64,000 bases of DNA from Verrucomicrobiia bacterium (lineage in GTDB: Bacteria; Verrucomicrobiota; Verrucomicrobiia; Palsa-1439), in contig DATJWQ010000046.1 in assembly GCA_035501175.1 (NCBI GenBank), forward strand, positions 9,701-73,700, read 5' to 3'. Within the stretch, counting starts at the first letter, position 1. Each line of letters opens with the position of its first letter. A program made the translations under genes and the position numbers. Of the stretch, positions 6,398 through 25,688 are shown one piece after another. The notes under the pieces were generated by a model. That model made no database searches. It had not been told where the DNA came from and saw only the letters and a program-made list of their open reading frames with translations.

Positions 6398-7525
6398 ATG
6401 ACCGACAGCGCCATCATTCGACCGACACGTACGCCATGGGGATTTCTGGCGTTCAACTTCGTTCTCTCGCGGCTGTTTCTCCTCACGGTGGCCAGGTTGG
6501 GTCTGCTGCTGTTCCAGAAAGGGGCGTTCTATACCCCACCAGGTTCGATTCTCGACTGGCTCAAGCAATGGGACTCTGGATGGTACCTGGGCATTGCGCA
6601 GAATGGATACAGGTACGTGCCTGGCCGGCAGTGCAATGTGGTGTTCTTCCCGCTGTACCCCATTCTAATGAGATGGCTTGCGTTCGGAGGTATGATCGAC
6701 TACCGCCTGATCGGTTATTTCATCTCCAACAGCAGCTTGTTTTTCGCGGCGGTGGTACTGTGGAAGCTGGCGGTGATCGAGATGCCGGATGAATCGTCCG
6801 CCCGGCGTGTCGTGCAGCTTGTGCTCTTCAATCCGGCGACCGTGTTCTACTCCTCAATTTACTCGGAATCCTTGTACCTGCTCTGTTTGGTGAGCACGCT
6901 GTACCTGGCCCGGGTGGAACGCTGGCTGTTGGCTGCGGTGTGCGCGTACGCTACGGGATTATCGCGGGTCGTGGGGCTGCTGCTCGTAATTCCACTGATC
7001 TGTGAGTACGTTCTTCAAAACCGTCGTGACTGGACCTGGCGCAACCTCAAAGCCTGGCGCGCGCTGGCCTGCATTGCGGCACCGGGGTTGGGATTCTTGA
7101 CCTATGTCGGATACCTTGATCGGACGTTTGGCGAGCCGCTGGCATTTATCAAGGCCGAGGTGGCTTGGGGAAGGAAACTCGTGTGGCCGTGGGTGCCGTT
7201 TCGCCACCTTGGCTGGTACGATCCGCCGTACGCGATTCTGTTTGTGTGCACCGCCATAATTGCGCTGGCCCTGCTTTTCGTTGCCGCGCGATGGCGGATG
7301 CGTCCCACATATCTTCTGGTTCTCGTGATCTTCCCCGCGATTTGCGTCTCCAGCAGCCGGCTGGAATCTCTCCCGCGCTACTTCTCCGTGCTGTTCCCGT
7401 TCTATTTCGTGCTCGCCCTGATAACTCGGAAATGGCCGCACTTGGCCGGGCCCCTATTCGTGCTGTTTGGAGGACTTCAGGTAATGGCGACCATCCTGTT
7501 TGTGAACGGGTACTGGTTCACGTGA
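6398..7525 (+). CDS. GT-C fold membrane mannosyltransferase-like protein (PIG-V / GT76-like)
   Basis: Motif WDSGWYLGIAQNGY followed by FFPLYP matches the PIG-V/Gpi18 mannosyltransferase signature (WDaehFl.IAehGY ... FFPLYP). About 10 predicted TM helices. Confidence 0.65.
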   Translation: MTDSAIIRPTRTPWGFLAFNFVLSRLFLLTVARLGLLLFQKGAFYTPPGSILDWLKQWDSGWYLGIAQNGYRYVPGRQCNVVFFPLYPILMRWLAFGGMIDYRLIGYFISNSSLFFAAVVLWKLAVIEMPDESSARRVVQLVLFNPATVFYSSIYSESLYLLCLVSTLYLARVERWLLAAVCAYATGLSRVVGLLLVIPLICEYVLQNRRDWTWRNLKAWRALACIAAPGLGFLTYVGYLDRTFGEPLAFIKAEVAWGRKLVWPWVPFRHLGWYDPPYAILFVCTAIIALALLFVAARWRMRPTYLLVLVIFPAICVSSSRLESLPRYFSVLFPFYFVLALITRKWPHLAGPLFVLFGGLQVMATILFVNGYWFT

Positions 7526-8546
7526 CCGCAGGGCGAGAGCGAATGTCATCCCCGGCTGCCAACGCCCGTTGCACGGCTGACGCTACCTCGCTCACCGTGA
7601 TCGCCGAGAAAGATCGTCGCCAGTAGCTCTTGCGCGACTCCCAGTGTTTGCGGCGGATGGGCTTTGTTACGATGATCGCCCGGTCGGTCAGGGGACGCCA
7701 GCGCGTCGGGCCGTAGAGCGGCGTGGTGCGTCCGAAGATTACCACGACGGGACAGCCGACTGCCGCTGCCAAGTGGCTCGGACCGGTGTCCCGAGTGACC
7801 AGCACACGCGCGTGCTTCAATAGCCAAGCCAATTCCGCCAGGTCCGTTCGGCCGGTCAGATTGAGGTGGTGCGCCGGGGCATTGGCGGGGGAATCGGCTG
7901 CGTCCGCGCCCACGAACACGAGCTTCAGATGCAGTTCCTGGTCGATCCAATCGGCCAGATGCAGGAAGTTCTCGGCGGGCCAGCGGGCGATCAGGGAATG
8001 GGCCGATGGATTCACCACAGCAAACGGGGTTGAAGGGAGTGGCCACGGCAGTTTCGCGCCAAGCGAGGCGAGCGCCGATTCTGGAAGATGGACGCTGGGA
8101 ATGAAACGGTCTGGAGATGGCACCCCGATAAGAGCCAACAGATCGAAGTTGTACGCCGCTTCATGTTTCATGCCCCTGGCACGTCGATCGGGCAGTCCGT
8201 GCGTGAGATATCGGGTCAGGAAACGCTCATGGTAGCCGATACGAACGGGTATGTTCGCCTGGTACGCGCCACAGTAGCATTCCGCATCAGGGTGAAGATG
8301 AATGACAGCATCGAATGCCAACTTCGCAAGGCACGTTGGATCGGAGAGGAAGCCGTCGAGATCCGGATGGCCATCGAACAGCGGGCGCATCCGTTCCGCC
8401 GCGAAGAAATAGAGCGTAGCGCGCGGAAAGCGCTGGCGAATCGGGGCGATACAGGAGGTCGAAATGATCACGTCGCCGACGCGATCGGGACGGGCGACAA
8501 GCAATCGCGGGGCATCAGGCAGCGTTAATCTCGTGGAGCAGGGCAT
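7518..8546 (-). CDS. glycosyltransferase family 9 (ADP-heptose:LPS heptosyltransferase-like)
   Basis: N-terminal LLVARPDRVGDVIISTS and C-terminal VTRDTGPSHLAAAVGCPVVVIFG motifs are typical of GT9 WaaC/WaaF-type enzymes. Confidence 0.8.
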   Translation of the reverse strand: MPCSTRLTLPDAPRLLVARPDRVGDVIISTSCIAPIRQRFPRATLYFFAAERMRPLFDGHPDLDGFLSDPTCLAKLAFDAVIHLHPDAECYCGAYQANIPVRIGYHERFLTRYLTHGLPDRRARGMKHEAAYNFDLLALIGVPSPDRFIPSVHLPESALASLGAKLPWPLPSTPFAVVNPSAHSLIARWPAENFLHLADWIDQELHLKLVFVGADAADSPANAPAHHLNLTGRTDLAELAWLLKHARVLVTRDTGPSHLAAAVGCPVVVIFGRTTPLYGPTRWRPLTDRAIIVTKPIRRKHWESRKSYWRRSFSAITVSEVASAVQRALAAGDDIRSRPAVT

Positions 8547-9696
8547 TCGTGTAATCGTCCCAGGAACGGAAGCGTCGCTGCCGGGCTTCGGCGAAAAGCC
8601 GGTCGTAAAGGGCGCGGTCGGTGAGCAACTGCCGCATCCCGTCGGCGACCGCGTTGGTGTCAGCGCAGGTGACCGTCAGGCAACCGCCTCCTGCCGAGAC
8701 TTCGCCGAGCGCGCCGTTGGCGCCGCAGACGCAGGGGCGTCCATGCCACAAGCTTTCGAGAATGGGCAATCCGAATCCTTCGCGCACGGACGGATACACC
8801 GTGAATGAGCAGTCATGGTAGGCCTGATGAAGAGCCTGGTCGCTGATGTGGCGCAGCCATTTCAGCGGGCGTCCCTGGTCCACCAAACGGTTGGCCTCCG
8901 TGAGAACCGTCGCGCCCCAGTCCGCCGTCATCCGTCCGACGAGAACCAATTCGAAGTCGAGGCCGCCGGCCCAAAGGGTCTCGGCCGCTTCCAGCAATTT
9001 CAAATGATTCTTGCGCCGCTCCAGCGTGGCGACGCAGAGGATTCGTCGCGTGTCGAAACGGGGCAGGGCGTCCGGTCGGTCTTTTCCGAAATCGGTGGGC
9101 CAACCCAGCACGGCAGTCGGCATGCGCGAGACTCCCAGGGATGTCCAATAATGCTGCAGATCATTCTCCACCTCGCAGGAGACGCAAACGACCTTGTCGA
9201 ACGCTCCGAGAGCCCGAACATACTCGGCGAAATTGGGCTGATGATCCTGCGCGGTCAGATCGGGCAGACGCAGGGCGATGGCGTCGTGAAACACGGCGTA
9301 ACATCGCCCCGGGAAACGTCTTGCGGGAGCCGTAAACTGATGGATACGTTTGTCCCGAAAGATCTCCGGTACGAACAACACGTCGTCGGTTGTCGCGGCG
9401 ATTTCCAGAGCGAATTGTCGTTTTCGATTACGAAAGTGGCGGATGGTTTTCGACCACGGGAATCGAATGACGACCTGTTCCGGTTTGGCGCTCGGGGCGC
9501 GGTGGCGGGCAAAGGGTTTCACGAGAAAGCGATGTTCGCGCGAGGACAGACGGCAGTAGGAATTCAGTTTGTCATTCCAGAGAATCGGCACCACGGCTGT
9601 GCGGCGACTGAGCGCGGCAAAGAGACCGCGCACCATTCGTTGCACGCCGGTGTTCAATGGCGACTTACAGGAACTGGAGACATCCAGGTAGAGCAC
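8515..9696 (-). CDS. glycosyltransferase family 4
   Basis: GT4 C-terminal motif REGFGLPILESLWHGRPCVCG and an E(x7)E-like region. Overlaps the GT9 gene on the same strand. Confidence 0.75.
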   Translation of the reverse strand: MLYLDVSSSCKSPLNTGVQRMVRGLFAALSRRTAVVPILWNDKLNSYCRLSSREHRFLVKPFARHRAPSAKPEQVVIRFPWSKTIRHFRNRKRQFALEIAATTDDVLFVPEIFRDKRIHQFTAPARRFPGRCYAVFHDAIALRLPDLTAQDHQPNFAEYVRALGAFDKVVCVSCEVENDLQHYWTSLGVSRMPTAVLGWPTDFGKDRPDALPRFDTRRILCVATLERRKNHLKLLEAAETLWAGGLDFELVLVGRMTADWGATVLTEANRLVDQGRPLKWLRHISDQALHQAYHDCSFTVYPSVREGFGLPILESLWHGRPCVCGANGALGEVSAGGGCLTVTCADTNAVADGMRQLLTDRALYDRLFAEARQRRFRSWDDYTNALLHEINAA

Positions 9697-9871
9697 GATT
9701 GATTATAGTGGTGGGCGCAATCGCGTGGCAAGAGGGCCCTTGTTGCCCGGACGGGAGCCGCGCGGACGTTGAATTATCTTGTTCGACGGCAGAGCGTTTG
9801 GCAGTATCCCCGGGCGAAGCACGGAGGTTATCTGATTCATTGGCGCAGCCGGAGACTGTGATACACAGGAC
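9697..9871. promoter_or_regulatory. divergent intergenic region between the GT4/GT9 operon (minus) and the Wzt-led biosynthesis operon (plus); probable divergent promoters
   Basis: 175-bp non-coding gap between divergent gene starts at 9696 (minus) and 9872 (plus). No sigma-factor box could be identified by eye. Confidence 0.3.
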
Positions 9872-11362
9872 GTGAGTTCAGACATCGTTATCGACGTAGA
9901 GAACGTATCGAAGGCCTACGCGATCTGGACCTCGCCCGCGGCTCGGTTGCACGGGCCGCTGTTGGGTCGCGTCGGACAATTGCCGTTTCTCCCCGCGGGC
10001 ACCCGCAACCTCTGCAAGCGGCTTTCACGCGAATCGTTCCGAAATTTCTACGCGCTGAAGAACATCTCATTCCAGGTCCGCCGTGGGGAAAGCTTCGGCA
10101 TCATCGGTCGCAACGGCTCGGGCAAGAGCACGCTGCTGCAGATCATCGCCGGGACGCTGATGCCGACGGAAGGCGAAACCCGCCTGGGCGGCAAGGTGGC
10201 GGCGCTGCTGGAATTGGGCAGCGGATTCAACCCGGAATTCACCGGCCGCGAGAACGTGTACATGAACGCCACGGTGCTGGGATTGAGCAGGCACCAAATC
10301 GATCTGAAATTCGACGAAATCGCCGATTTTGCCGACATTGGCGAATTCATTGATCAGCCGGTCAAGACGTACAGCAGCGGCATGCTGATGCGGCTCGCAT
10401 TCGCCGTGACGACGCGGGTGGACGCGGAAGTTGTCGTGATCGACGAGGCTCTGGCCGTGGGGGACATGTTTTTTCGGCAAAAATGCTACCAACATTTGGA
10501 ATCGTTGCGAGCCAAAGGCGTGTCCATTGTGCTGGTCTCGCATGGCATGGCAGATGTGGAGCAGTTCTGCCAGCGGGCCGTGTTGCTGCATCACGGCGAA
10601 CTGGTGTTCCAAGGGAGCGGTTCGGAAGCAGTCAAACGATATTATCTCGTCGAACAGGAAGAATACGCCCAGTCAATTGCGGCCAGTACCCCTCTTCCCC
10701 GGAGCCCGACCGCCCGGACGGTGGCCAGCGACGACGAGATTGAGTGGCCCACACCTGAGGCATTCCTCAATCTGTCGCGCGTGTCACAGGTGTCTAATGG
10801 CTGTGCGCGCTGTACCGGCGTCGCCATCTGTGATGCCGAGGGCCGCCCGTGTGCGGCCTTCCAGCAGGGAGAAACCGCGACGTTCTATTGCGAATTTGAA
10901 TTGGAGCGGGATATCGACGCGCCTTTGGCCGGCGTTGAGATCATTAACGACAAGGGGATCATTGTGCACGGGCGGACAACTCTCGAATACGGCGTGCCTG
11001 TTCCCTGCGGGGTGTCCCGGGGCAGTCGTCTGCGGTTGAAACAGGATATCACTCTCGAACTGGCCCTGGGCGAGTATACCTTCACGGTAGGACTGGGGAT
11101 GCTGGCACAACGAGATTACGAGATGGCCGATCGCTTCCCGCATGTCGAATTGCACAGCAAGATCGTGCGGCTTTGTGTTGTTCCAAAGGTTGGACAATTC
11201 TGCATTATCTTTCGTCGCGCCGGGAAGCCCGTGCAGTTGTTGCATCATGGCCTTGCGAATCTCCCCGGTTCGGCCCATCTGGTGGCCCGCGAAGGATCAC
11301 GCGCGTCAGCTCCGATTGAAACAGCAGTGGTGTTGGAGACGCATGATCGGGCGCATGTGTGA
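9872..11362 (+). CDS. wzt: polysaccharide export ABC transporter ATP-binding protein (Wzt/TagH/KpsT family) with a roughly 230-aa C-terminal extension, possibly a glycan-terminus-binding domain
   Basis: GTG start with AGGA ribosome-binding site. Walker A GRNGSGKST, signature YSSGMLMRLAFA, Walker B VVVIDEAL. The extra C-terminal domain is the arrangement seen in Wzt proteins that recognise capped O-antigen termini. Confidence 0.85.
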   Translation: MSSDIVIDVENVSKAYAIWTSPAARLHGPLLGRVGQLPFLPAGTRNLCKRLSRESFRNFYALKNISFQVRRGESFGIIGRNGSGKSTLLQIIAGTLMPTEGETRLGGKVAALLELGSGFNPEFTGRENVYMNATVLGLSRHQIDLKFDEIADFADIGEFIDQPVKTYSSGMLMRLAFAVTTRVDAEVVVIDEALAVGDMFFRQKCYQHLESLRAKGVSIVLVSHGMADVEQFCQRAVLLHHGELVFQGSGSEAVKRYYLVEQEEYAQSIAASTPLPRSPTARTVASDDEIEWPTPEAFLNLSRVSQVSNGCARCTGVAICDAEGRPCAAFQQGETATFYCEFELERDIDAPLAGVEIINDKGIIVHGRTTLEYGVPVPCGVSRGSRLRLKQDITLELALGEYTFTVGLGMLAQRDYEMADRFPHVELHSKIVRLCVVPKVGQFCIIFRRAGKPVQLLHHGLANLPGSAHLVAREGSRASAPIETAVVLETHDRAHV

Positions 11363-11398: not shown

Positions 11399-14300
11399 AT
11401 GAAAACCGGTCACCACAAACAAACGGATGTCGGCGGGGGTTCGCAGGGAGGTTCCCCCGTTCGCCGCGTGTGTTGGTGCGGCAACCTCCATTTTCAGGAA
11501 TTTGGAGGTGAGTATGGCTTGTGCCCGCAGTGTCAGACCTTGGTTTCGCTGGCCGGCACCGCGCCAGAAACCCGGATCACCAACGAGCAGGATTTCTACG
11601 GTGAGCAGTATTGGTATAAGCATCAGGTGGCGGAGTTGGGGTTCCCGAATATCCAAACGCGGGCGCGTATGGATATGCCCGAGCGATGCCTGTACTGGAT
11701 CCGGGCATTGCTCAGGTACAAATTGCCACCCGGGAAGGCGCTGGAGATGGGCTGTGCTCACGGCGGGTTTGTGAGCCTGCTCCGCTGGGCAGGGTTTGAT
11801 GCCGCCGGCTTGGAGATCAGCCCGTCCATTGCGGATCTGGCACGCTCCATTTTTGATGTGCCCGTGCTGGTCGGCCCCGTGGAGGATCAGTCGCTCGGCC
11901 AGAATAGCCTGGACGTGGTTGTCCTGATGGATGTGTTGGAGCATTTGCCGGAGCCCTTGGCGACGATCCGCCAATGCGTCAAGCTCCTCAGACCGGACGG
12001 GGTATTGCTCATCCAGACGCCGGAGTATCCCGCGGGGAAGCAGTATCAGCAGTTGGTTTCGGAGAAAAGCCGCTTTCTGGAGCAACTGAAGCCTCGCGAG
12101 CATCTCTTCCTGTTCAGTCAGGATTCGATCAAGCAATTCCTGATGCAGGCCGGATTGCGGAATCTGTCCTTCGAGCCGGCGATCTTCGGGCACTACGACA
12201 TGTTTTTTGTCGCGAGCCGCGCGCCGTTGCCAGTGCGAACCCCGGACGACATCGCACAGCAATTGTGTTCACAGGCTCCCGGGCGGCTGGTCTTGGCGCT
12301 CCTGGATTTGGACGAGCGGTTCCGGAACATGACTGCACGTTACGTCGAATCCGAAGCCGATCGTGGCGCCAGGCTGAACAGCATGCATGCCCTGGAGGCT
12401 CTCCTGAGGGAGTCCGAGACCGACCGCGCGGCGAGGCTGAAGGTGATTGAAGGACAGGGCGGCGAAATCGCCGTGTTGAACGCCGAGTTGAGGAGCCAGC
12501 AACAGGCTCGGACCGAAGCCGTCCATCGCCTGGGCGCGTTGGAATCGGAACTGTCACAGGCGGCGGCGCGATGTGCCGAGTTGAACGCCGAATTGAGGAG
12601 CCAGCAACAGGCTCGGACGGAAGTCTTGAATCGCCTGGGCACGTTGGAATCGGAACTGTCGCAGGCGATGGCCCGATGCGTCGCACTGGAGGGTGAGCGG
12701 GCTGCCACAGCGAGAGTGATTGAGGGACAACGTGGCGAAATCACCGGATTGAATGCCGAATTGCAGCGCCGGCAGAATCGCATGGATGCATTGGAAGCGG
12801 AATTGTCCCAAACTCACCGGACTCTGGGCGAACTTCAGCAGCGCCACGACGAACTGGATACTTCCTGCCAGCGGTTGCAAAACGAGTCACGATATCGCCA
12901 GGGACAATGGCAAACCTTGCTGCCTGCGTTGGAGAGCTTCCGAAACAGCGAAGCGCTCCATCTCCTTCGCTGGTGGAGGCCCCTACGTGAGCTGAATCAA
13001 GCTGCGCAGGCCGTTGTTCCCGAGCCCGCGCGCATCGAACCCCGTCCCCGTCGCCCGCAAACGCTCAGCCGCGTTTGGGTCGACCTGGCGCCCCTGCAGC
13101 CGGGGGGCGAAAACGGCGGCGCCAAATGGCTTGCGCTCGAATTGGTCAGGGAACTGGCGAGGCTCACCCCGGATTGTCAGTGGATCTTGCTTGCGTCCGA
13201 CAAGGCTCTTCCGGAACTGGCCGGCTATGCGAGGGAGAATATAAGCTGCTCCCGCGCTGACGCACGGCCCCGGAGACGGGGCCGCAACGGCTCACCCAAA
13301 CAAGCCTGGCGCATGCTGGGGTCAAACCGGTCATCATTGCCCCGACCGGATCTGGTGTTCTGTCCGTTTACGACCGCACGTCTGTATACCGACGATGTGC
13401 CGCTGGTCGCCGTCGTGCATGATCTTCAATACCTGGTTTATCCGCAGTTCTTCAGCGAACACGAGAGATCCCACCGGGCGAGGGAATTCAGTGATGTGTG
13501 CCGTTTTGCCTCGCGGATCATTTGCGTTTCCGACGCCGTGCGGGAAGCTGTCGTGCGGGAGGGAATGATCCAACCACACCGGGTGAAGAGCGTTCACACG
13601 CGGCTCTTTCACCGTCTACCGTCGCCAGCGGCGACAGCCGTGGCGCGGACCTTGCATCGGCTCCACGTGGAACCGGGCCGGTATCTGCTCTATCCGGCGA
13701 ATTTCTGGGCTCACAAGAACCACGAGATGCTCCTGACGGCGTTTGGCATGTACCGGGCCCGGGCGCCGGGTTCCGAAGTAAAGTTGGCTTTCACTGGGGC
13801 TCCCGGTGATCGAAGCGAGGAATTGCGGAAGATCGCTCGCCGCATGGGTCTGCAATCTGTCGTGGAGTTTTTGGGATTCCTGCCGGGGGATGACTTCGCG
13901 GCGGTGCTCAGCGGTTGTCGAGCCGTGATCTTTCCGTCGCTGTTCGAGGGGTTTGGATTGCCGGTACTGGAGGCCATGGCGTTTGACAAGCCCGTCTTGT
14001 GCAGCAATGGAACCGCCTTATCCGAAGTCTCGGGTGAGGCAGCGTTGTTTTTCGATCCTCGAAAACCGAAGACCATTGTCGCCGCGCTGGAGAGGCTTGA
14101 GAATGACTCGTCCCTGGCGCCGAAGTTGGTCGCTCTCGGTCGCCGCCGGTTGGCGGAGCTGGGGGGCGCCGAGGTGATGGCCCGCGACTACCTGCGGATT
14201 TTCCAGGAAGCGTTGAAGGAAGATGACAATTGGGTCCCTGCGGCGCGCGGCATTTACGGGGACGGGTGGACCCAGGATCGTATAACCATCGTTTACGACA

Positions 14301-15507: not shown

Positions 15508-16658
15508 GAATCGGATTCGATGTCAGTCAAACCGGTGCGGGCAGGTCGGGTTGCGGCTATTTTGCTGAGAGCATGATTCGTCATCTGGCAGAAATTGATG
15601 ACGGGAATGAGTATGTGCTCTACCCGACCTTCGGCAGCCATTGGTGGGATCCCGATTGGCAGTCGGGAATCGCCACCGTGGCGGGGCCGAACTTCCAGCG
15701 CTGGGAAGGGCACCAATCGCATCAGGAATCACGACGGTTCTGGGACGAGCCAACGGAGCAATTCGAGGCTCATCTTGGTGATCCGGATATCGTCCACGCC
15801 AATAACTTTTTCTGTCCCAAGGGCCTCCACGCAGCACGTCTGGTGTACACACTGCACGACCTGGCGTTTCTGGAATATCCCGAGTTCGCAACGGAAGCGA
15901 ATCGGCTGGCGTGTTTTGACGGGGTCCTCCGCGCGAGTCTGTTGGCGGATTTGATTGTTGCGGTCTCCGAGCATTCGCGCCACCACTTTTTGGAAACATT
16001 CCCGCATTATCCGCCCGAGAGAGCGATTGTCATGCATGAGGCCAGCCGGTTCGCGTCCCGACCGATTGCTCGCCCGGAGAAGCTGTCAATGCTCGCACCG
16101 GGAGAATTCTGGCTGAGCGTCGGCACGCTTGAGCCGCGCAAAAACCCTGTTCGATTGTTCCGCGCTTATGCCCGGCTCAAATCCAGCGCACCGCTGACAT
16201 GGCCGCTGGTTTGGGCTGGCGGTAACGGCTGGCTGATGGATGACCTCCCGCATCTGCTCAAAGAGGAGGGGCTGGAGCGTGACATCCTGTTGCTGGGGCG
16301 CGTCGATGACGAAAGCCTGCAGTGGCTCTACCAGAATTGCTTCGCCTTCGTCTTTCCTTCCGTCTTCGAAGGCTTCGGCCTGCCCGTCCTCGAAGCACTC
16401 AGCTTGGGCGCGCCGGTCATCGCCGCCAACACAACGTCGATTCCGGAAGTGGTCGGCGCGGCTGGGTTGTTGGTCGATCCGCTTTCCGAGGACGAGATCC
16501 TCGCGGCCATGATGAAACTCGATGGTGATAAGGCTCTGCGACAGGGTCTCAGCTCGGCAGGACCCCGTCAGGCCGAGCGGTTTTCCTGGACCCAATCTGC
16601 GCGGCAGCTCTTGCAGCAATACCAACGCACCTGTGAATCGGCTCCGTTCGCGAATTGA
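15504..16658 (+). CDS. glycosyltransferase family 4
   Basis: ATG at 15504 overlaps the upstream stop (ATGA). GT4 motif FPSVFEGFGLPVLEALSLGAPVIAANTTSIPEV. Confidence 0.8.
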   Translation: MRIGFDVSQTGAGRSGCGYFAESMIRHLAEIDDGNEYVLYPTFGSHWWDPDWQSGIATVAGPNFQRWEGHQSHQESRRFWDEPTEQFEAHLGDPDIVHANNFFCPKGLHAARLVYTLHDLAFLEYPEFATEANRLACFDGVLRASLLADLIVAVSEHSRHHFLETFPHYPPERAIVMHEASRFASRPIARPEKLSMLAPGEFWLSVGTLEPRKNPVRLFRAYARLKSSAPLTWPLVWAGGNGWLMDDLPHLLKEEGLERDILLLGRVDDESLQWLYQNCFAFVFPSVFEGFGLPVLEALSLGAPVIAANTTSIPEVVGAAGLLVDPLSEDEILAAMMKLDGDKALRQGLSSAGPRQAERFSWTQSARQLLQQYQRTCESAPFAN

Positions 16659-16788: not shown

Positions 16789-19155
16789 ATGAGTCGATAT
16801 TTGGAGTTAGGAGCGGAAGAAGGCAGGTCCTCTTGGTGGGCTGAATTCCTGACGTTCTCGCCCGTCTGGTTGGCTCTTGTGATTATGCTCCCGCGACTTC
16901 TCCAGCCGCACTTCGGTTTACTCGACGACGGGGTCACCCTCAGTGCCAGTCAAGGTGTCGGGGGTTGGACGCTGCCATTTCACATGTCCGGTGATACGGG
17001 CAGGTTCTGTCCTGTTTACTGGGCTTACTACCGCGCCATCTACAAGATCGTGGGTGCCAGACCGCTGCTTTTTTTTGGCGCCCAGTGCGTTCTCTTGGCC
17101 GCTACGGTCGCCGGGCTGATCCACTTTGGCCGACTGGTTGGCGCCAGCCGGTTCCAAGCCGGCACTGCGGGACTCTTCTTTGTGGTCTCCGGTCCTGTCA
17201 TCGAGAACTTCTATACCATCTCGAAGGCGGAGCCCATCCAGGTTTTGCTCCTCCTTTGTTCGCTTATTTTGGCGGAGTACTGTGCTCGGCAGGGCGCGCT
17301 TAAACGACAAATTGGATTTGTATTGGTAATTGCGGGCATGCTGCTGATGGCGAATGGGGCCAAGGAAACCAGTTTGGTGATGATCCCGATCAGCATGGCC
17401 CTGCTTGCAGTGACTCTGGTCCGAAAGCGCTGGCGGAGAGAAGGTCCCCCCGTTCGAGACAGCATCCTCTTCGTGTTTGCGACTCTTGTCGCCGGGATGG
17501 CATTCCTGCTTCTGCGCAAGCATTTTTCGACCTCTTCAATTGCCTCGGGCAGCTACACAAAAGCGTACTCTCTGGTCAATGTCCACGACTCGGCTTGGCG
17601 GCTACTGGCATGGTTGATTAGAGATTTCCCCCAACTGTTGCCATTGGGGGTTGTTGCGGGCCTGTCGTACAAACAGCGTAACCTATCCCAAAGCCGGCTA
17701 TTGTGGCTCTCGGTGATATGGATGCTGTTCTGGATGGGGATTTTTGCCCCTTGGCATTCTTGCTTGGAGTATTACCTGTTGCCCTTTGCGATGGGTTCCG
17801 CGCTCTTTTTCGGGCTGACCGTTGCCGAAGGCATCGACATGCTGTCTCAACCCGGCAAGGGGATTCCAAGGGTTGTCGCCGCCATATGCATGGTGGTCGC
17901 TGTCTGGCTGACCCAATTTACCGTCATAAATAATATTACCAATGCCAGGGTCCAGCTGAACGTTGACCGGGTGAATTCGAAGCTTGTGAGGTTTCTGGCT
18001 GGGTTGCCGGTGGACAGCCGTGTTCTTATCAATCTCTTGGAACCAAATGAATACACCTACGAGGTGGGAGTACACCTGCGGGATTTGAATCGCCGACCCG
18101 ATCTGCACGTTGATTACTTCCGGTTTCAGACCGCGACTCCGACTGAGCCAACAACGACCTATTATGTCGCGTCACCCCTGATGACCAATCAATTGCTCCC
18201 GTCGGTTCGCGTGGCCGTCGACGAATCAACAGCCAATGTGATGACCGAGTGCTTGGCTGGTTTTCTCGGCGAAACGGATCCGCTGGTTTATCATTCGCAA
18301 GCCGCCTTTCCATTATTGGATATTGGTTTCCAACGGATTCTATGTGGACTCGGTGTCGACGGCTTGGATTGCGGGGTGCCGAGAGCGTTTGTCGAAGGTC
18401 GGACTTTCCTTTACGGCTGGCAGGTGCATCGTGTGGTTCGGGAAATCTTGCATCAGGCGCGTCCCGGCAGATATTATGCAGGTGGAAGGTGGGAGCTAAG
18501 CGGCCCTGCCGCGGTGGTACAGAGGATTCAGTTTGGCAAGGACGCTGACCTGCCCGTTGTGGGAGACTGGAACGGGGATGGTTCAACCGGTATCGGCGTG
18601 TTCCGACCGTCTGACCTGACGTGGCGACTGGATTCTAACATGAACGGCACAACGGGGCTGGTGTTTCGGTTTGAGGGGATGAAAGCTGGCGACATTCCGA
18701 TTGTCGGAGATTGGGATGGCAACGGTACCGCCACCCCGGGGTATTTTCGTCCCGCAGACGCCAGCTGGCACCTGCGAAACAGTAATTCAACGGGCGCTGA
18801 AGACTGGCCGATTCTGCACTTCGGGATGCCAACGGATCTCCCCGTTGTTGGTGATTGGAATGGTGAGGGTCGCGATACCATTGGGATTTATCGACCGGAG
18901 AATGGCGAAGTGGACCTGAAGAATGACCTCAGTCCGGCACCGGCTCAAATCGTGTTCAGTGCACCGCGGAACGCGAAGCCAGTCGTGGGAAAGTGGTCTG
19001 GAGGCAGGGTCTGCACATTCGCTTTTGTTGTCGGGACCAATTGGAAATTGCGGCCGGTGAATTGTCAGGCCCCGGTTCTCAATCCGCCAGCCGATTTCGA
19101 GTTTGGCTCCACGGAAGGCCGTCCTGTGGCTGGGAACTGGAGGCCGGGACCGTGA
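16789..19155 (+). CDS. GT-C fold polytopic membrane glycosyltransferase-like protein with a C-terminal domain of FG-GAP-like repeats
   Basis: About 12 TM helices, with an acidic DD motif in the first extracytoplasmic loop (FGLLDDGV). The C-terminal 250 aa contain four VGDWNGDG...G.FRP repeats. Sits directly upstream of a GtrB-like gene. Confidence 0.6.
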   Translation: MSRYLELGAEEGRSSWWAEFLTFSPVWLALVIMLPRLLQPHFGLLDDGVTLSASQGVGGWTLPFHMSGDTGRFCPVYWAYYRAIYKIVGARPLLFFGAQCVLLAATVAGLIHFGRLVGASRFQAGTAGLFFVVSGPVIENFYTISKAEPIQVLLLLCSLILAEYCARQGALKRQIGFVLVIAGMLLMANGAKETSLVMIPISMALLAVTLVRKRWRREGPPVRDSILFVFATLVAGMAFLLLRKHFSTSSIASGSYTKAYSLVNVHDSAWRLLAWLIRDFPQLLPLGVVAGLSYKQRNLSQSRLLWLSVIWMLFWMGIFAPWHSCLEYYLLPFAMGSALFFGLTVAEGIDMLSQPGKGIPRVVAAICMVVAVWLTQFTVINNITNARVQLNVDRVNSKLVRFLAGLPVDSRVLINLLEPNEYTYEVGVHLRDLNRRPDLHVDYFRFQTATPTEPTTTYYVASPLMTNQLLPSVRVAVDESTANVMTECLAGFLGETDPLVYHSQAAFPLLDIGFQRILCGLGVDGLDCGVPRAFVEGRTFLYGWQVHRVVREILHQARPGRYYAGGRWELSGPAAVVQRIQFGKDADLPVVGDWNGDGSTGIGVFRPSDLTWRLDSNMNGTTGLVFRFEGMKAGDIPIVGDWDGNGTATPGYFRPADASWHLRNSNSTGAEDWPILHFGMPTDLPVVGDWNGEGRDTIGIYRPENGEVDLKNDLSPAPAQIVFSAPRNAKPVVGKWSGGRVCTFAFVVGTNWKLRPVNCQAPVLNPPADFEFGSTEGRPVAGNWRPGP

Positions 19156-19175
19156 GCGATGCCCGCGACAACAAA

Positions 19176-20192
19176 ATGCTTTCGATGGATATTATTGTGC
19201 CGCTGTTTAATGAGGAACTGGTCCTCACGGAATTCCACGGGCAATTGGTCCAGGCGGTTTCCAAACTACCGTGCGAGATCCGGATTCTATATGTCGATGA
19301 CGGCTCATCCGATGACACACCGGCTCTGTTGCAGAACCTGGCAAACAAGGATTCGCGCGTGGCGTTCATCAGGTTCAGCCGCAATTTTGGCCATCAGTCC
19401 GCGCTTACGGCCGGCTTGGATCACGCTGACGCCGATATTGTCATCATGATGGATGGCGACGGGCAGCATCCGCCGCAACTGATCCCGGAGATGGTCGACC
19501 AGTTCCGCGCTGGTTACGATGTGGTTCTGACTCAACGGAGCGACGAAGCCGGATTGTCATTCCTGAAGCGGAAGAATTCGCAGCTGTTTTACGGGCTCAT
19601 CAACCGCATTGGAAATACAAGGATCATTCCCGGCGCTGCCGACTTCCGCTTGCTGTCGCATCGCGCGGTAGACGCTCTCCGTCAGATGCCTGAGTATCAT
19701 CGATTCCTGCGCGGCATGGTGTCCTGGGTCGGGTTCCGAACAGCGATTCTGCCGTATACGGCTCCAGCCCGCCTCCATGGGAGCTCCAAGTATTCCCCTG
19801 GCAAGATGATGAGGCTGGCCATGGATGCCATCTTCTCGTTCTCGCTGGTGCCCCTTCAAATCGGCCTGGTTCTCGGTCTCTTGTTCTTCGTCCTGGCCGC
19901 ACTTGAAGTCATCTACGTCCTGAGCTTTTGGGTGCGGGGCAAACAAGCGTTGCTGGTGCCCGGCTGGAGCTCTTTGATGTTTGTTATACTTATCACCGGG
20001 GGGTTTCTCATGACGCTGGTCGGTCTGATCGGCAATTATGTGGGATATATTTTCCAGGAAGTGAAACATCGTCCTGTCTACGTGATTCAAACGGCGCACA
20101 TGGAGTCCCGGAGCGCACGGCCACTCCGTTCATTAGGCGAACTTCCTCGTTCACCAAAGACGTTGGAGACCCGGCCGGGCCCGCGACAATGA
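19176..20192 (+). CDS. polyprenyl-phosphate sugar synthase (GT2; GtrB/ArnC/dolichol-phosphate-mannose synthase-like) with C-terminal TM helices
   Basis: DIIVPLFNEE, YVDDGSSDDT and MDGDGQHPP motifs, plus two C-terminal TM helices, as in GtrB/ArnC. Confidence 0.8.
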   Translation: MLSMDIIVPLFNEELVLTEFHGQLVQAVSKLPCEIRILYVDDGSSDDTPALLQNLANKDSRVAFIRFSRNFGHQSALTAGLDHADADIVIMMDGDGQHPPQLIPEMVDQFRAGYDVVLTQRSDEAGLSFLKRKNSQLFYGLINRIGNTRIIPGAADFRLLSHRAVDALRQMPEYHRFLRGMVSWVGFRTAILPYTAPARLHGSSKYSPGKMMRLAMDAIFSFSLVPLQIGLVLGLLFFVLAALEVIYVLSFWVRGKQALLVPGWSSLMFVILITGGFLMTLVGLIGNYVGYIFQEVKHRPVYVIQTAHMESRSARPLRSLGELPRSPKTLETRPGPRQ

Positions 20193-21043
20193 CCACAAGC
20201 TGCCCCTGCTGTGAAGCTCGCGATTGGATCCGTCGCTGGCCCGGATTTGTTATCTGCGCCCAATGTGGCGTCATGATGTTTGAACAGCAGGTCGATCTCG
20301 CAACGTTGCGGCCGCACTACGGAACCGACTACTTCCAGGGCCACGAGTATCTGGATTATCAGGGGGACCGCGCGATCCACGAAAAGACCTTGCTGCGGCA
20401 CCTGCGCCTCGTGAAACGGTTCGTCCCCAGAGGCGAAGGGCTTTTGGAAATGGGCGCCGCTTACGGCTTCTTCTTGGAGCTGGCGCAGTCATATTATCCT
20501 GATTCCGTCGGGGTGGAGTTGTCAGCCGACGCGGCGAAGTCGGCCGTCGCGCGAGGGCTGGACGTGAGAACCGGCGATTTGCTGGAATTGGATTTTGATC
20601 GCTCTTTTGCAGCAGTCTGCTTGTGGGATACCATTGAGCATCTGCCCCATCCCTATGAGACTGTTCATCGAGCGGTAGGTCTGCTGAAGCCCGGGGGCTA
20701 TATGTTTCTGACAACCGGCGATTTTGGTGCGTGGCTACCTCGACTGCAAGGGCTTCGATGGAGACAGATTCATCCTCCCACACATTTGTTCTACTTTACT
20801 CGCCGATCCTTGGACCGTTTATGCCTGCGTTGCGGTCTTGTTGTGCTGGAGTTCGGCACCGTGAGTGTTTTCCGCAGGCTGCGATCCTCGTTGAGATCTC
20901 TCGACCAGTTTCATGCAAACACCTTGCCCGGCCGACTTGCCAAAGCTGCTCTACGGATCCTCCCCGGCCGACTGCTGGATTGTGGCTTCCCGCTGAATCT
21001 GGGAGACACGATGTTCTTGGTGGCCCAAAAGCCCGTTCTTTAG
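20189..21043 (+). CDS. class I SAM-dependent methyltransferase with an N-terminal Zn-ribbon
   Basis: ATG overlaps the upstream stop (ATGA). CPCCEA...CAQCG zinc ribbon; LEMGAAYGFF and LWDTIEHLPHP methyltransferase motifs. Confidence 0.7.
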   Translation: MTTSCPCCEARDWIRRWPGFVICAQCGVMMFEQQVDLATLRPHYGTDYFQGHEYLDYQGDRAIHEKTLLRHLRLVKRFVPRGEGLLEMGAAYGFFLELAQSYYPDSVGVELSADAAKSAVARGLDVRTGDLLELDFDRSFAAVCLWDTIEHLPHPYETVHRAVGLLKPGGYMFLTTGDFGAWLPRLQGLRWRQIHPPTHLFYFTRRSLDRLCLRCGLVVLEFGTVSVFRRLRSSLRSLDQFHANTLPGRLAKAALRILPGRLLDCGFPLNLGDTMFLVAQKPVL

Positions 21044-21116: not shown

Positions 21117-22127
21117 ATGATACCCGAACCCAAGTGTTCCAATGAGGAGTTTGTCGAGTTTTGCTACCAGAGGGTGCTCCGTCGGGCCAGCGACCCGCAG
21201 GGACGTGAGGAAAAGATCGCGGCTCTGAATCGCGGACTGTCCCGACTCGATCTGCTGCTGCAGTTCTTGGACTGTCCCGAGTTTCTCTCCCGGGCATCCG
21301 AGTGGGTTCCGCCCGGCCACTTCTATTCGCCCATTCCCAACCTGCAGGACATTGCCGACCGGCTCAAGGATCTTCGGCTCGACGCTCAGGCATGCCCGAA
21401 TCTCGACATGCGGGACAACGAGCAAGTCCGCCTGCTCAATGCCCTTGCCGCCTATTACCCGGACCAGCCGTTTTCTGCAAAGCCATCAGCTCCGCTCCGG
21501 TATTATTTCGACAATGATTCCTTCCCATACGGCGACGCACTGGTTCTGTATGCGATGCTGCGGCACTTCAAACCCTCGCAAATCATTGAAATCGGCTCGG
21601 GGTATTCATCGGCAGTGATGCTGGACACCAACGACTTGTTTTTGGAGGGGAGCATCCGGCTCACGTTCATCGAACCCTACCCGCAACGGTTGTACGGCCT
21701 GTTGAGTGAAGACGACAAAGGGCACCACCGCGTTGTGGAACAGCCGGTTCAGAAAATGCCGGTGGCGGTGTTCCGTGAACTCAAGGCCGGAGATATCCTG
21801 TTTGTGGACTCCACCCATGTTGCCAAGTGCAACAGTGATGTGTTGTATGTTTTCTTCGAGATTATCCCCTCCCTGGCGGACGGTGTACTGATTCATTTTC
21901 ACGACATCTTCTGGCCGTTCGAATACCCCGCCAAATGGCTGCAGGAAGGCCGGGCGTGGAACGAGGCGTACTTCCTTCGAACGTTTCTGGAATACAATCA
22001 CAGATTCCAGGTTGTCTATGGCAGCAGCTACATGGCGCACTTTCATTCGGATCTTCTCCAGGAGAAAATGCCCCTGGTCATGCGCAACACTGGTGGGAGT
22101 TTCTGGTTGAAGAAGTTGCCCGCTTGA
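21117..22127 (+). CDS. DUF4214-like N-terminal domain fused to a TylF/CmcI-type class I methyltransferase (likely sugar O-methyltransferase)
   Basis: N-terminus EFVEFCYQRVLRRASDPQGREEKIAALNRG resembles DUF4214. IIEIGSGYSS and DILFVDSTHV resemble the Methyltransf_24 (macrocin O-methyltransferase) family. Confidence 0.6.
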   Translation: MIPEPKCSNEEFVEFCYQRVLRRASDPQGREEKIAALNRGLSRLDLLLQFLDCPEFLSRASEWVPPGHFYSPIPNLQDIADRLKDLRLDAQACPNLDMRDNEQVRLLNALAAYYPDQPFSAKPSAPLRYYFDNDSFPYGDALVLYAMLRHFKPSQIIEIGSGYSSAVMLDTNDLFLEGSIRLTFIEPYPQRLYGLLSEDDKGHHRVVEQPVQKMPVAVFRELKAGDILFVDSTHVAKCNSDVLYVFFEIIPSLADGVLIHFHDIFWPFEYPAKWLQEGRAWNEAYFLRTFLEYNHRFQVVYGSSYMAHFHSDLLQEKMPLVMRNTGGSFWLKKLPA

Positions 22128-22220: not shown

Positions 22221-22787
22221 ATGCAAATGCGCAAGCAATCAACGGGGATTCGCGACTGCGAAGTGCTGATGCCCGAGGTGTTCGAAGATGCGCGAGGATT
22301 TTTCCTCGAGGTGTTTCGCGCGGATCAGTTCCGGGAATTCGGGCTGCCCGAACGATTTCAGCAATGGAATCATTCCCGCTCGTGCCAGAACGTCGTGCGC
22401 GGCCTGCATTTCCAGACCGATCCACCGATGGCCAAGATGATGCGTGTGACGCTTGGCGAGGCGTTTGTGGTCGCGGTGGATATCCGCAAGAACTCGCCAA
22501 CGCTGGGGCAGCATTTTGCGACCATTGCCTCGGCGGATAACAAGAAGATGGTTTACGCACCCCCGGGATTCGCCCGCGGGTTTGCCGTTCTCTCCGACTA
22601 TGCAGAGGTCCAATACCTGTGCACGAGCATTTACAACGTCAAGACGGAGTCGGGCATCCGCTGGAATGATCCGGCGCTGGCCATCCCGTGGCCCGTAACG
22701 AACCCGATCTTGTCGGGGAAGGATGAGAAGGCGCAGACGTTGGCGGAATGGTTGAAGCGCCCCGAATCGAATGCGTTCGTCTATTGA
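22221..22787 (+). CDS. dTDP-4-dehydrorhamnose 3,5-epimerase family protein (RmlC-like cupin)
   Basis: ATG preceded by GAGGAGGA ribosome-binding site. Motifs FFLEVFR, RGLHFQ and YAPPGFARGFAVLSD match the RmlC fold. Confidence 0.7.
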   Translation: MQMRKQSTGIRDCEVLMPEVFEDARGFFLEVFRADQFREFGLPERFQQWNHSRSCQNVVRGLHFQTDPPMAKMMRVTLGEAFVVAVDIRKNSPTLGQHFATIASADNKKMVYAPPGFARGFAVLSDYAEVQYLCTSIYNVKTESGIRWNDPALAIPWPVTNPILSGKDEKAQTLAEWLKRPESNAFVY

Positions 22788-22882
22788 GGAGATCAAGTGC
22801 GCTTGTGAATGTGTCCGAGCAAACACCGGTGTGGACAGTGAATCGCGCAACGGGCCAGCCAGTCTCTCTGGTCCGTCTGCTG

Positions 22883-23686
22883 ATGCCGTGGCAAATGGTC
22901 CATGATCTGCGCCGGCACAGCTCGTTGATCTGGCAATTCACCAAGCGCGACGTGCTGATGCGTTACCGCGGATCGTATCTGGGCATCTTGTGGTCGCTGT
23001 TGCGTCCGCTCTGTATGCTGGCGGTGTTCTTCGTCGTGTTCGGCTACATCTTTCAGTCGCGGTGGGGCCACGACCAGAACGAGACCCGCATCGACTACGC
23101 GCTGGGATTGTTCTGCGGTCTGATCGCCTTTGATTTCATGGCCGAATGCCTCGCCCGGGCGCCGACTCTCGTCCTGTCGAACCCGAACTACGTGACCCGG
23201 GTGGTGTTCCCGGTCGAGATTCTGCCCGTGTCCGCCGTCGGCGGGGCGCTGTTGCACATGGTGCTCAGTTCGATCCCGTTGTGTTTGGGATACCTCTTCG
23301 TGCACGGCTCGCTGCACCTGACGGCGCTGTATCTGCCGCTGATTTTCATTCCGTTGGCGCTTTTGGGGCTGGGACTGACATGGCTGTTTGCCAGCCTCGG
23401 GGTGTTCATTCGTGACATCAATTCATTCGTGCCCGTGCTGATCACGATTCTGATGTACGCCAGTGCGATCTTCTATCCGATCAGCCGGGTGCCCGCGGCA
23501 ATGCTGCCCGCGGTGATCCACAATCCGCTGGCCGTATTGGTGGAGAACACGCGCAACGTGTTTATGTGGGGGATGCCATTGAACTGGGGGCAGTACCTGT
23601 CCGCGACGCTGCTCTGCCTTGTCATCATGTTGTTCGGCTACGGGTTCTTTATGAAGACCAAGAACGCGTTCGCGGACGTGGTTTAG
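22883..23686 (+). CDS. wzm: ABC-2 type polysaccharide export permease (Wzm/KpsM/TagG family)
   Basis: N-terminal LIWQFTKRDVLMRYRGSYLGILWSLLRPL motif followed by six TM helices. The start could be an upstream GTG at 22805. Confidence 0.8.
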   Translation: MPWQMVHDLRRHSSLIWQFTKRDVLMRYRGSYLGILWSLLRPLCMLAVFFVVFGYIFQSRWGHDQNETRIDYALGLFCGLIAFDFMAECLARAPTLVLSNPNYVTRVVFPVEILPVSAVGGALLHMVLSSIPLCLGYLFVHGSLHLTALYLPLIFIPLALLGLGLTWLFASLGVFIRDINSFVPVLITILMYASAIFYPISRVPAAMLPAVIHNPLAVLVENTRNVFMWGMPLNWGQYLSATLLCLVIMLFGYGFFMKTKNAFADVV

Positions 23687-25681: not shown

Positions 25682-25688
25682 GGCCACG

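Follow-up and report, generated by a model that had tools for sequence, protein, structure and literature searches.

Gene content of the locus

The window, a 64,000-nucleotide stretch of DNA from an uncultured Verrucomicrobiae bacterium, contains a series of genes coding for glycosyltransferases, methyltransferases, an epimerase and an ABC transporter. The features are listed below.

6398..7525, + strand: PIG-V-like (GT-C type) membrane mannosyltransferase homologue (Pfam Mannosyl_trans2, E 1.2e-13)
7518..8546, - strand: GT9 (heptosyltransferase-family) glycosyltransferase, conserved flank gene (Pfam Glyco_transf_9, 82.6 bits)
8515..9696, - strand: GT4 glycosyltransferase, GT4a, conserved flank gene (Pfam Glycos_transf_1, 69 bits)
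9702..9731, - strand: candidate sigma-70-like promoter serving the divergent GT4a-GT9 unit (TTGCCA-18-TATAAT, 11 of 12 consensus positions)
9872..11362, + strand: Wzt, ABC ATPase (approximately residues 1-270) with C-terminal carbohydrate-binding domain (Pfam ABC_tran, 75 bits)
11399..14617, + strand: fusion protein of methyltransferase, coiled coil and GT4 (Pfam; SMC coiled-coil matches)
12470..12678, + strand: 105-bp tandem duplication in the coiled-coil linker (Tandem Repeats Finder, score 334)
14614..15507, + strand: GT2 glycosyltransferase, cassette gene 2 (Pfam Glycos_transf_2, 96 bits; ATGA overlap)
15504..16658, + strand: GT4 glycosyltransferase, GT4b, cassette gene 3 (Pfam Glycos_transf_1, 89 bits; ATGA overlap)
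16789..19155, + strand: uncharacterised GT-C-fold membrane glycosyltransferase, 788 aa (fold search)
19152..20192, + strand: GtrB/ArnC/PgfS-like polyprenyl-phosphate glycosyltransferase (Pfam Glycos_transf_2, 106 bits; GTGA overlap)
20189..21043, + strand: MT2, Zn-ribbon and Methyltransf_23 methyltransferase (Pfam, 73.7 bits)
21117..22127, + strand: MT3, DUF4214 and Methyltransf_24 methyltransferase (Pfam)
22221..22787, + strand: RmlC, dTDP-4-dehydrorhamnose 3,5-epimerase (TIGR01221, 208 bits; cut-off 155.75)
22805..23686, + strand: Wzm, ABC-2 permease, from its putative start (Pfam ABC2_membrane, 69.7 bits)

The twelve genes named in the original prediction, GT9 to wzm, are all present; their types were confirmed by Pfam, NCBIfam, PDB and fold searches, and their coordinates are roughly as first given. 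Its core reading, an ABC-dependent glycan locus with a cap-binding domain on Wzt and many methyltransferases, is upheld by the Pfam and NCBIfam family matches. Judged from these genes, the region is very probably a Wzm/Wzt (ABC-transporter-dependent) surface-glycan locus. The closest PDB match to Wzt is Aquifex aeolicus Wzt (8dku/7k2t, E 5e-66), and its Wzt_C domain (residues 308-409) scores 50.1 bits against a Pfam cut-off of 30. The start of wzm, previously placed at ATG 22883, probably lies upstream, at GTG 22805, with ATG 22748 as an alternative. Wzm proteins of relatives align upstream of the Met at 22883, gene callers choose 22748, and a Shine-Dalgarno sequence for GTG 22805, GAGGAG, can be read overlapping the rmlC stop codon. 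The epimerase, first described as RmlC-like, is a full-scoring RmlC, with further support from Pfam (198 bits) and from RmlC structures in the PDB (E 1e-43). MT3 belongs to a very large family whose best non-self matches are 52-58% identical (archaea, cyanobacteria and Burkholderia). It is unique to the window among the relatives examined, with no counterpart in the nine loci L001-L009.

The genes had also been described as lying in a row in one long operon. This description is correct from wzt to wzm (11 genes), where three ATGA overlaps (14614, 15504 and 20189, as predicted) and a fourth 4-nt start/stop overlap, GTGA at 19152, were read directly in the sequence and every remaining gap is 130 nt or less. 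It does not extend to GT9 and GT4a, which are both on the minus strand and thus form a separate unit, divergent from wzt. GT4a shares a transcript with GT9; its start is placed at ATG 9636 by gene callers, and it is 373 aa as called in L090, a separately assembled contig. The promoter candidate of this unit is a consensus match only, and such sites are not more frequent in the region than expected by chance. In L001 and L004-L006, GT9 and GT4a are 65-72% and 63-72% identical respectively. The PIG-V-like gene lies just beyond the twelve genes, tail-to-tail with GT9, and codes for a protein with approximately nine hydrophobic segments. This protein has no similarity to the 382-404-aa proteins at the same position in L004 and L005, and its gene may be a further variable component of the island.

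Nature of the product

The locus had been called complete, which the gene content does not support: the window contains no initiating phosphoglycosyltransferase, WaaL-type ligase or lipid-sugar flippase (GtrA/MATE type), and rmlA, rmlB and rmlD, already noted as missing, were not found among the window ORFs scanned. The chance that the final product is LPS O-antigen is about even. The same export machinery could instead serve an S-layer or surface-protein glycan, as in Geobacillus and Paenibacillus, or a lipid-anchored capsule-like polymer, but such products are rather unlikely here. Ligase and initiating genes are often unlinked in ABC-dependent O-antigen systems, and no KpsC/S/E/D-type capsule genes were seen. 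Verrucomicrobia have two membranes, and in every close relative the island is flanked by a heptosyltransferase-family GT9 gene and a conserved GT4, as expected for a core-linked LPS. GT9 itself scores under the NCBIfam cut-offs for named heptosyltransferases.

The fusion protein and its cassette

The fusion protein consists of a Zn-ribbon and SAM methyltransferase region (residues 30-290), a helical linker (293-515) with SMC coiled-coil matches over residues 304-515, a GT4 domain of the GT-B type (558-940) and a conserved beta-sandwich (948-1069). Its AF2 model (pLDDT 82) is interrupted at residues 377-394, where confidence is low, and does not distinguish an extended coiled coil from a hairpin; in Foldseek comparisons the model matched GT4 enzymes. 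The duplication in the linker comprises 2.0 copies with 88% matches, each of 35 aa or five heptads, and the repeated peptide (LNAELRSQQQARTE...LESELSQA) is seen in the translation. The fusion protein has 192 homologues, and across 107 homologues the linker spans 65-707 aa between conserved flanking domains. GT2 follows the fusion gene in nine of nine contexts, including the window. Together with GT4b these genes form a conserved cassette of three, in which GT2 and GT4b are 53-70% and 51-60% identical respectively in L001-L005.

Terminator-ruler-polymerase logic has been demonstrated experimentally for Klebsiella pneumoniae O12 WbbB and O7 ORF6 and for Escherichia coli O9a WbdD (PMC11231755, PMC3482155). 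Similar to O7 ORF6 and O12 WbbB, the fusion protein has an N-terminal, distal terminator candidate, a long coiled coil and a C-terminal glycosyltransferase module (PMC11231755). Stand-alone glycosyltransferases are also encoded alongside, with Wzm and a Wzt bearing a C-terminal binding domain for export; O7 draws on dTDP-rhamnose. O7 has a kinase domain and O12 a Kdo transferase, whereas the candidate terminator here is solely a methyltransferase with a Zn ribbon; a single GT4 domain takes the place of GT2 or GT102/103 modules as the putative polymerase, and the conserved C-terminal beta-sandwich is additional. A methyl group by itself forms the cap in E. coli O8. In WbdD of E. coli O9a/O8, too, a coiled coil carries a SAM methyltransferase, capping regulates chain length, and the C-terminal domain of Wzt reads the cap (PMC3482155). 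However, WbdD and the polymerase WbdA, which it recruits, are two proteins; here methyltransferase and polymerase are fused. By analogy with these systems, the fusion protein could combine the roles of terminator, chain-length ruler and polymerase module, setting length by methyl cap and ruler, a proposal about as probable as its converse.

A methyl-capped polymer, as originally suggested, agrees with this architecture and with the way the Wzt binding domain varies along with the fusion protein, a pattern seen in four loci only. In three relatives carrying the fusion protein the binding domain is 54-60% identical; in L006, where the fusion protein is missing, it could not be detected (E<=10), whereas the ATPase domain is 66-77% identical across relatives. 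The suggestion is weakened by L002, in which the Wzt beside this cassette is short and has no binding domain. The cassettes of L003, L008 and L009 have no transporter within 9-10 kb. Thus, cap-dependent export is not universal in the fusion family.

L002, L003, L008 and L009 also favour another reading, in which the methyltransferase acts on a sugar precursor or on residues within the chain rather than ending it, and the linker is a spacer or oligomerisation element. So do the lack of a sequence match between the methyltransferase and WbdD and the top PDB match of the GT4 domain, 7qsg, a mycobacterial methylmannose polysaccharide mannosyltransferase, where methylation is internal. This reading is nevertheless unlikely. 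A ten-fold variation in linker length between conserved catalytic domains is a hallmark of ruler proteins, and in every characterised case the terminator is at the coiled-coil end distal to the polymerase, as it is here (PMC11231755). That the Wzt binding domain varies with the fusion protein also argues for the terminator-ruler-polymerase assignment.

The GT-C, GtrB-like and MT2 module

The 788-aa protein gave no Pfam match and no PDB sequence match. It is predicted to have a GT-C fold like that of ArnT (approximately residues 1-555), with an invariant DD (46-47) after the first transmembrane helix, and a C-terminal five-bladed, lectin-like (tachylectin-like) propeller (558-788). The GtrB-like enzyme has C-terminal transmembrane helices (hydrophobic segments 231-285) after its GT2 domain and scores under the NCBIfam cut-offs for both PgfS (279 bits) and ArnC (142 bits); it is 346 aa by gene callers, with an alternative start at 19176. 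MT2 and the fusion protein are alike in having an N-terminal CxxC...CxxC. The identity of MT2 in L004 and L005 is 72-73%, and conservation there extends upstream of the annotated starts. The order GT-C, GT2, methyltransferase is kept in L004-L006 at 66-80% identity.

This conserved module probably carries out periplasmic glycosylation, and whether it adds a side branch there is evenly poised. In GtrA/B/V of Shigella and Salmonella, GacI/J/K/L of group A Streptococcus and the GT136 pentofuranose system, the polyprenyl-phosphate sugar comes from a cytoplasmic enzyme, a role expected here of the GtrB-like enzyme, and a GT-C enzyme transfers the sugar outside the cytoplasm onto an already exported polymer; the lipid-linked donor can be altered by a further, auxiliary enzyme in the cytoplasm (PMC11127046). 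The GT-C enzyme of the GT136 system also has a C-terminal glycan-binding module (PMC11127046). Unlike these three-component systems, the locus has no flippase gene (GtrA/SMR, MATE or Wzx-like), its third conserved gene codes for a methyltransferase, and its GT-C protein, with the tachylectin-like propeller, belongs to a family without a Pfam model.

In L006, the module is accompanied by quite different cytoplasmic glycosyltransferases, and its acceptor may therefore differ from the polymer of the cassette. An independent system acting on lipid A/core, as do ArnC and ArnT, or on protein, by Pgf- or PMT-type O-glycosylation, is nonetheless improbable. The module always lies within a wzt-led gene string and is translationally coupled through the GTGA and ATGA overlaps, and the propeller resembles the modules of glycan-binding GT-C enzymes (PMC11127046). 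The 788-aa protein is just 10-12% identical to ArnT (GT83) and protein O-mannosyltransferases (GT39), from which its C-terminal domain also differs, and the Ara4N-pathway genes ArnA/B/D are absent from the window.

Separation of wzt and wzm

The wide spacing of wzt and wzm, already noted as unusual, was measured at approximately 11.4 kb and is shared by none of the 22 verrucomicrobial comparison loci found with Wzm. In 17 of these, wzt is immediately upstream of wzm and divergent; it is adjacent and co-directional in two, and approximately 3 kb away in two others. The flanks of the window's block are a response regulator, GT9 and GT4a on one side and wzm with a MacB efflux operon on the other. 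The same flanks are found at 54-86% protein identity in L001, L004, L005 and L006, in which wzm (-) and wzt (+) adjoin and GT4a and GT9 lie downstream, co-directional. They enclose the window's block in reverse orientation relative to these relatives.

From this comparison, the separation is very likely the result of a single, lineage-specific inversion of the island's variable middle, the wzt..rmlC block (approximately 13 kb), between conserved flanks, and it is without special function. A designed bracketing of the locus by wzt and wzm was rejected because the block is inverted between these flanks. The inversion would have changed wzm from a divergent neighbour of wzt to the last gene of the 11-gene co-directional unit. 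Although the sequence comes from a metagenome-assembled genome and the layout is unique against the 22 relatives, an assembly artefact is extremely improbable, since the gene order recurs in a 133-kb ENA contig that includes both junctions (L090) and an independent 14-kb Logan contig spanning the rmlC-wzm-MacB junction (L091), the breakpoints have no inverted repeats able to mislead an assembler, and the rmlC-wzm junction is compact, with its Shine-Dalgarno sequence positioned for wzm.

Proposed pathway

Synthesis would begin with priming of a polyprenyl-phosphate acceptor by an enzyme encoded elsewhere. The chain would then be built in the cytoplasm by the cassette, with the C-terminal GT4 domain of the fusion protein acting as polymerase together with GT2 and GT4b. 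The N-terminal methyltransferase, approximately 220 helical residues away, would cap the non-reducing end and so set chain length; the cap would be recognised by the C-terminal domain of Wzt and the chain exported by Wzm/Wzt. The propeller-bearing GT-C protein would then attach, in the periplasm, a side-branch sugar from the polyprenyl-phosphate donor made by the GtrB-like enzyme, and MT2 may methylate this sugar. RmlC and MT3 would be strain-specific extras, suggestive of an L-rhamnose-type sugar and further O-methylation.

Overall, the best explanation, and a reasonably likely one, is a variable, serotype-like surface-polysaccharide island that uses the ABC-dependent (Wzm/Wzt) route. For this soil or peat Verrucomicrobium, the cluster is real yet fairly ordinary, and serves the synthesis and export of a surface sugar polymer.

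Gene content and pathway assignment

Pfam and NCBIfam scans bore out the gene list of the original prediction, and its assignment of the locus to an ABC-transporter-dependent glycan pathway is sound; the observation was largely right.

Genes of the glycan locus (window coordinates; Pfam and NCBIfam scans unless stated otherwise)
7518-8546, minus strand: GT9 glycosyltransferase
8515-9636/9696, minus strand: GT4a, a GT4 glycosyltransferase
9872-11362: Wzt, ABC_tran plus Wzt_C carbohydrate-binding domain (Pfam)
11399-14617: fusion protein, 1072 aa
14614-15507: GT2 glycosyltransferase
15504-16658: GT4b, a GT4 glycosyltransferase
16789-19155: 788-aa protein, no family match
19152-20192: GtrB/ArnC/PgfS-like GT2
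20189-21043: MT2, Zn-ribbon/Methyltransf_23 enzyme
21117-22127: MT3, DUF4214/Methyltransf_24 enzyme
22221-22787: RmlC, score above the equivalog cut-off
end at 23686: Wzm

Wzm is an ABC-2 permease (PF01061, 69.7 bits against a cut-off of 26.9) that is 56-77% identical to the Wzm proteins of verrucomicrobial relatives. The ATPase domain of Wzt (PF00005, 75 bits) is nearest to the Aquifex aeolicus O-antigen Wzt structures (E 5e-66), followed among the top PDB matches by TarH/TagH and RfbE. The C-terminal carbohydrate-binding domain of Wzt matches PF14524 (Wzt_C) at residues 308-409 with 50.1 bits, against a cut-off of 30.4. The 3,5-epimerase RmlC scores 208.2 bits with TIGR01221 (cut-off 155.75), and solved RmlC enzymes are its nearest PDB structures (E 1e-43). 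The nearest non-self relatives of MT3 are found in archaea, cyanobacteria and Burkholderia, with 52-58% identity.

Inversion of the locus core

The neighbourhoods of homologues were compared with the window by tblastn of all window proteins. Four relatives' loci (L001, L004, L005 and L006) share one frame, which begins with a MacB-type efflux operon, wzm on the opposite strand, wzt and a variable block of glycosyltransferases and methyltransferases, and continues with GT4a, GT9, a variable gene and a response regulator. Their flank proteins are 54-86% identical to those of the window. The window flanks retain the relative orientation seen in these relatives, and the whole stretch from wzt to rmlC is reversed.

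A scan for Wzm in species-representative genomes, a set that does not include the window's own genome, gave 22 verrucomicrobial loci. In 17 of them, including the closest locus, L010 (Wzm 77% identical), wzt lies directly upstream of wzm and is divergent from it; in two it is adjacent and co-directional, and in another two, both from Opitutaceae, it lies about 3 kb away. A distance of 11 kb, which the original prediction had called unusual, occurs in none of the 22. The arrangement, with its conserved flanks and reversed wzt-rmlC stretch, is a derived, lineage-specific inversion of approximately 13 kb. Misassembly could also produce such a separation of wzt and wzm, but it is unlikely: both junctions are reproduced in a 133-kb ENA contig, the rmlC-wzm-MacB junction is reproduced in a separately assembled 14-kb Logan contig, and a search of the breakpoints for inverted repeats returned only short matches at chance level. 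With the inversion, wzm no longer lies beside the divergent wzt promoter region and is the terminal gene of the long unit, and GT4a-GT9, which is downstream of the variable block in relatives, is now divergent from wzt.

Transcriptional organization

All three ATGA overlaps noted earlier (14614, 15504 and 20189) exist, and a GTGA overlap at 19152, where an independent gene call has the same start, connects the 788-aa gene with its GtrB-like neighbour. The other gaps between wzt and wzm are at most 130 nt, and all genes in 9872-23686 are accounted for. From these start/stop overlaps and short gaps, an 11-gene co-directional unit from wzt to wzm is therefore plausible. The single long operon proposed earlier is thus plausible for this part, by its overlaps and common direction, but not for GT9 and GT4a, which run in the other direction. 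Between GT4a and wzt, the 235-nt intergenic region contains a sigma-70-like site with 11/12 matches, pointing toward GT4a. Scans for terminators and promoters gave site counts expected by chance, and this 11/12 site alone is noteworthy. Given gene strand and this site, the locus comprises at least two divergent units and not a single operon.

The start of wzm had been placed at 22883, but relatives' Wzm proteins align before that methionine, and a GAGGAG overlapping the rmlC stop precedes a GTG at 22805. The start is probably upstream of 22883.

A variable island with conserved flanks

O-antigen loci commonly have conserved flanks around a mosaic interior of lower GC. In the window, GC3 is 0.63-0.76 in the block, whereas wzm and the efflux genes have values of 0.76-0.83. 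Among the relatives compared, the block of L001 lacks the GT-C module (the genes for the 788-aa protein, the GtrB-like GT2 and MT2), that of L006 lacks the fusion cassette (fusion gene, GT2 and GT4b), and that of L004 carries extra methyltransferases and a sulfotransferase. MT3 is confined to the window, and rmlC is common to the window, L004 and L010 only.

A homologue of PIG-V-like (GT-C type) membrane mannosyltransferases at 6398-7525 (plus strand) lies tail-to-tail with GT9. In the same slot, L004 and L005 have unrelated Pfam-less proteins of 382-404 aa, and L001 and L006 have a 251-aa protein. Comparison rejected orthology of the PIG-V-like gene with these same-position genes, and the slot is therefore variable too. 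L004 encodes two paralogous Pfam-less proteins of this kind, 60% identical, at two places in its island (14636-15832 and 20966-22114; 382-404 aa), one of which is 72% identical to the protein at 18255-19469 of L005.

The MacB-type tripartite efflux operon at 23683-29742 (minus strand), which encodes an ATPase, an FtsX permease, a membrane-fusion protein and two outer-membrane factors, abuts wzm, and this adjacency is kept in most close relatives (L001, L005, L010-L019 and L031). L001 has, at 18358-19074 (minus strand), a GT2-like stretch that shares 49% identity with the cassette GT2 of the window. It is on the opposite strand, partly beneath a gene annotated as encoding a 543-aa GT4, and seems to be either left over from a previous rearrangement or the result of a gene-calling error. 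Apparent frameshifts or splits affect the cassette GT2 of L005 (7853-8754; 174 + 79 aa), wzt of L017 (8517-9919) and wzm of L031 (10049-10850). These could be pseudogenes or sequencing errors in metagenome-assembled genomes.

The methyltransferase-glycosyltransferase fusion protein

The AF2 model of the fusion protein (pLDDT 82) has four parts.

Residues 30-290: Zn-ribbon and methyltransferase
Residues 293-382 and 391-515: two long helices
Residues 558-940: GT-B domain
Residues 948-1069: beta-sandwich

NCBIfam SMC coiled-coil models match residues 304-515, and the linker is described as a coiled coil on the basis of these matches, ATG16 coiled-coil profile matches and the AF2 helices. The family has 192 scored homologues. 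In 107 homologues, 65 to 707 residues (median 208) separate the methyltransferase from GT4, and both catalytic domains and the C-terminal domain are conserved despite this linker variation. The window's copy contains a recent in-frame tandem duplication in the linker (12470-12678; 2.0 copies of 105 bp, 88% matches), and each copy encodes 35 residues, which is precisely five heptads. A chain-length ruler would be made longer by a change of this type. The same GT2 and GT4 genes come after the fusion gene in all nine contexts compared (9/9), including the window.

In ABC-dependent O-antigen systems, experiments have established that the terminating enzyme occupies the distal end of a coiled-coil ruler, whose base recruits the polymerase modules unless they are already part of the same protein (PMC11231755; PMC3482155). 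The fusion protein, with its methyltransferase, helices and GT-B domain in that order, matches this terminator-ruler scheme and the cap-dependent subtype of E. coli O9a/O8 and K. pneumoniae O12/O7 in architecture only, not in family. A sequence link to the WbdD family (Escherichia coli O9a/O8) was rejected, as no WbdD chain was among its PDB sequence matches at E<=0.01, and Pfam gave no kinase domain. The combination of a methyltransferase only with one GT4 is unlike all characterized examples. When the whole model was searched against the PDB with Foldseek, matches to the GT4 domain prevailed, which left the methyltransferase and the C-terminal beta-sandwich uninformed.

The binding domain of Wzt is 54-60% identical in L001, L004 and L005, all of which have the fusion, and is unrecognizable in L006, which does not; the ATPase domains are 66-77% identical throughout. 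This co-variation in four loci offers indirect support for cap-dependent export. The link is not universal, however, since in L002 the cassette is accompanied by a short Wzt, and no transporter lies near it in three distant loci. The methyl-capped polymer of the original prediction is a plausible idea, by domain comparison and analogy with the O-antigen systems. The family is also a clean natural case of a methyltransferase, a coiled coil and a glycosyltransferase joined in one protein, with a linker length that varies ten-fold.

The GT-C protein and a putative periplasmic module

The 788-aa protein, locus VMP11_09520 in NCBI, has no sequence match in Pfam, NCBIfam or the PDB. Its fold matches, at lower scores, include ALG12, STT3B, PglB and AftA, giving the GT-C fold transferase expected of a Gtr-type system, and five PxVGxW repeats, 46-48 residues apart, fit five propeller blades. 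The fold thus supports the earlier 'GT-C/FG-GAP' label, although no Pfam model is significant. In GT-C enzymes the catalytic acidic pair usually lies after the first membrane helix, and the family alignment has 'FGLLDDG' just after that helix. A profile search with the family found 420 cluster representatives at E<=1e-30, most of approximately 550 aa and without the propeller. In L001, L002 and L007-L009 the cassette is followed by large Pfam-less proteins, which hmmsearch and blastp rejected as family members.

The GtrB-like enzyme (PF00535, 106 bits) has hydrophobic segments at 231-285, a C-terminal membrane anchor, and scores 279 bits with PgfS and 142 bits with ArnC, both below the equivalog cut-offs. 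L004-L006 keep the order GT-C, GtrB-like GT2 and Zn-ribbon methyltransferase, with 66-80% identity. On the model of Gtr-type and GT136 systems (PMC11127046), a sugar would be added in the periplasm from a polyprenyl-phosphate donor, and the methyltransferase may modify this donor or its sugar. The acceptor is uncertain because L006 has the module with a different backbone gene set. Gtr-type three-component systems have a dedicated flippase in the locus, whereas the window locus has none (GtrA/SMR, MATE or Wzx-like), and no such Pfam family is present in the window.

It seems improbable that this trio represents a new extracytoplasmic glycosylation system, in which cytoplasmic O-methylation of the lipid-linked sugar donor would precede transfer without a dedicated flippase, the GT-C enzyme with its propeller would found a new glycosyltransferase family, and different backbones would be decorated across serotype-like variants of the island. 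One component is of real interest: a GT-C family, so far unclassified, that has a lectin-like propeller and a methyltransferase as its partner. The comparison thereby yields an unannotated GT-C family for glycosyltransferase classification.

Functions not found in the window

Pfam scans of the ORFs in the 64-kb window found no initiating phosphoglycosyltransferase and no WaaL-type ligase or other attachment enzyme. They also found no RmlA, RmlB or RmlD, as the original prediction had noted, with no strong NTP_transferase, extended-SDR or RmlD_sub_bind protein, and tblastn of the window with an SDR from L007 found nothing. As these functions and a GtrA-like protein were not found in the window, the description of the locus as complete is not justified. 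In this pathway type such functions frequently have unlinked genes, and those for initiation and attachment may be located elsewhere in the genome.

A conserved nucleotidyltransferase-like protein near the island (766-1707, minus strand), 72% identical to L005 20818-21699, matches NTP_transferase weakly (E 1e-6 to 1e-9, below RmlA grade), but could nonetheless serve in sugar activation. A second glycosyltransferase group at 54589-62303 comprises a GT4 (497 aa), a Glyco_trans_1_3 protein (392 aa) and a weak GT28-like protein (435 aa), followed by fatty-acid-synthesis-type genes (short-chain dehydrogenase and ketoacyl synthase). The lowest GC of the window (0.53-0.56) is at 46000-51000, with Pfam-less ORFs at 47946-48494, 49379-49993 and 50982-51890, and a PEP-CTERM protein is encoded at 42378-43334.

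Implications

A literature search found nothing specific on verrucomicrobial O-antigen loci or surface glycans, and the surface glycans of Verrucomicrobia are almost unstudied. The loci compared here show that uncultured Verrucomicrobiae of one clade from soil and peat carry an O-antigen-like island with fixed flanks and a swappable middle. Such a pattern marks, at the genome level, serotype-like diversification under pressure from phages or predators. These results leave current models standing and extend them to a new phylum.
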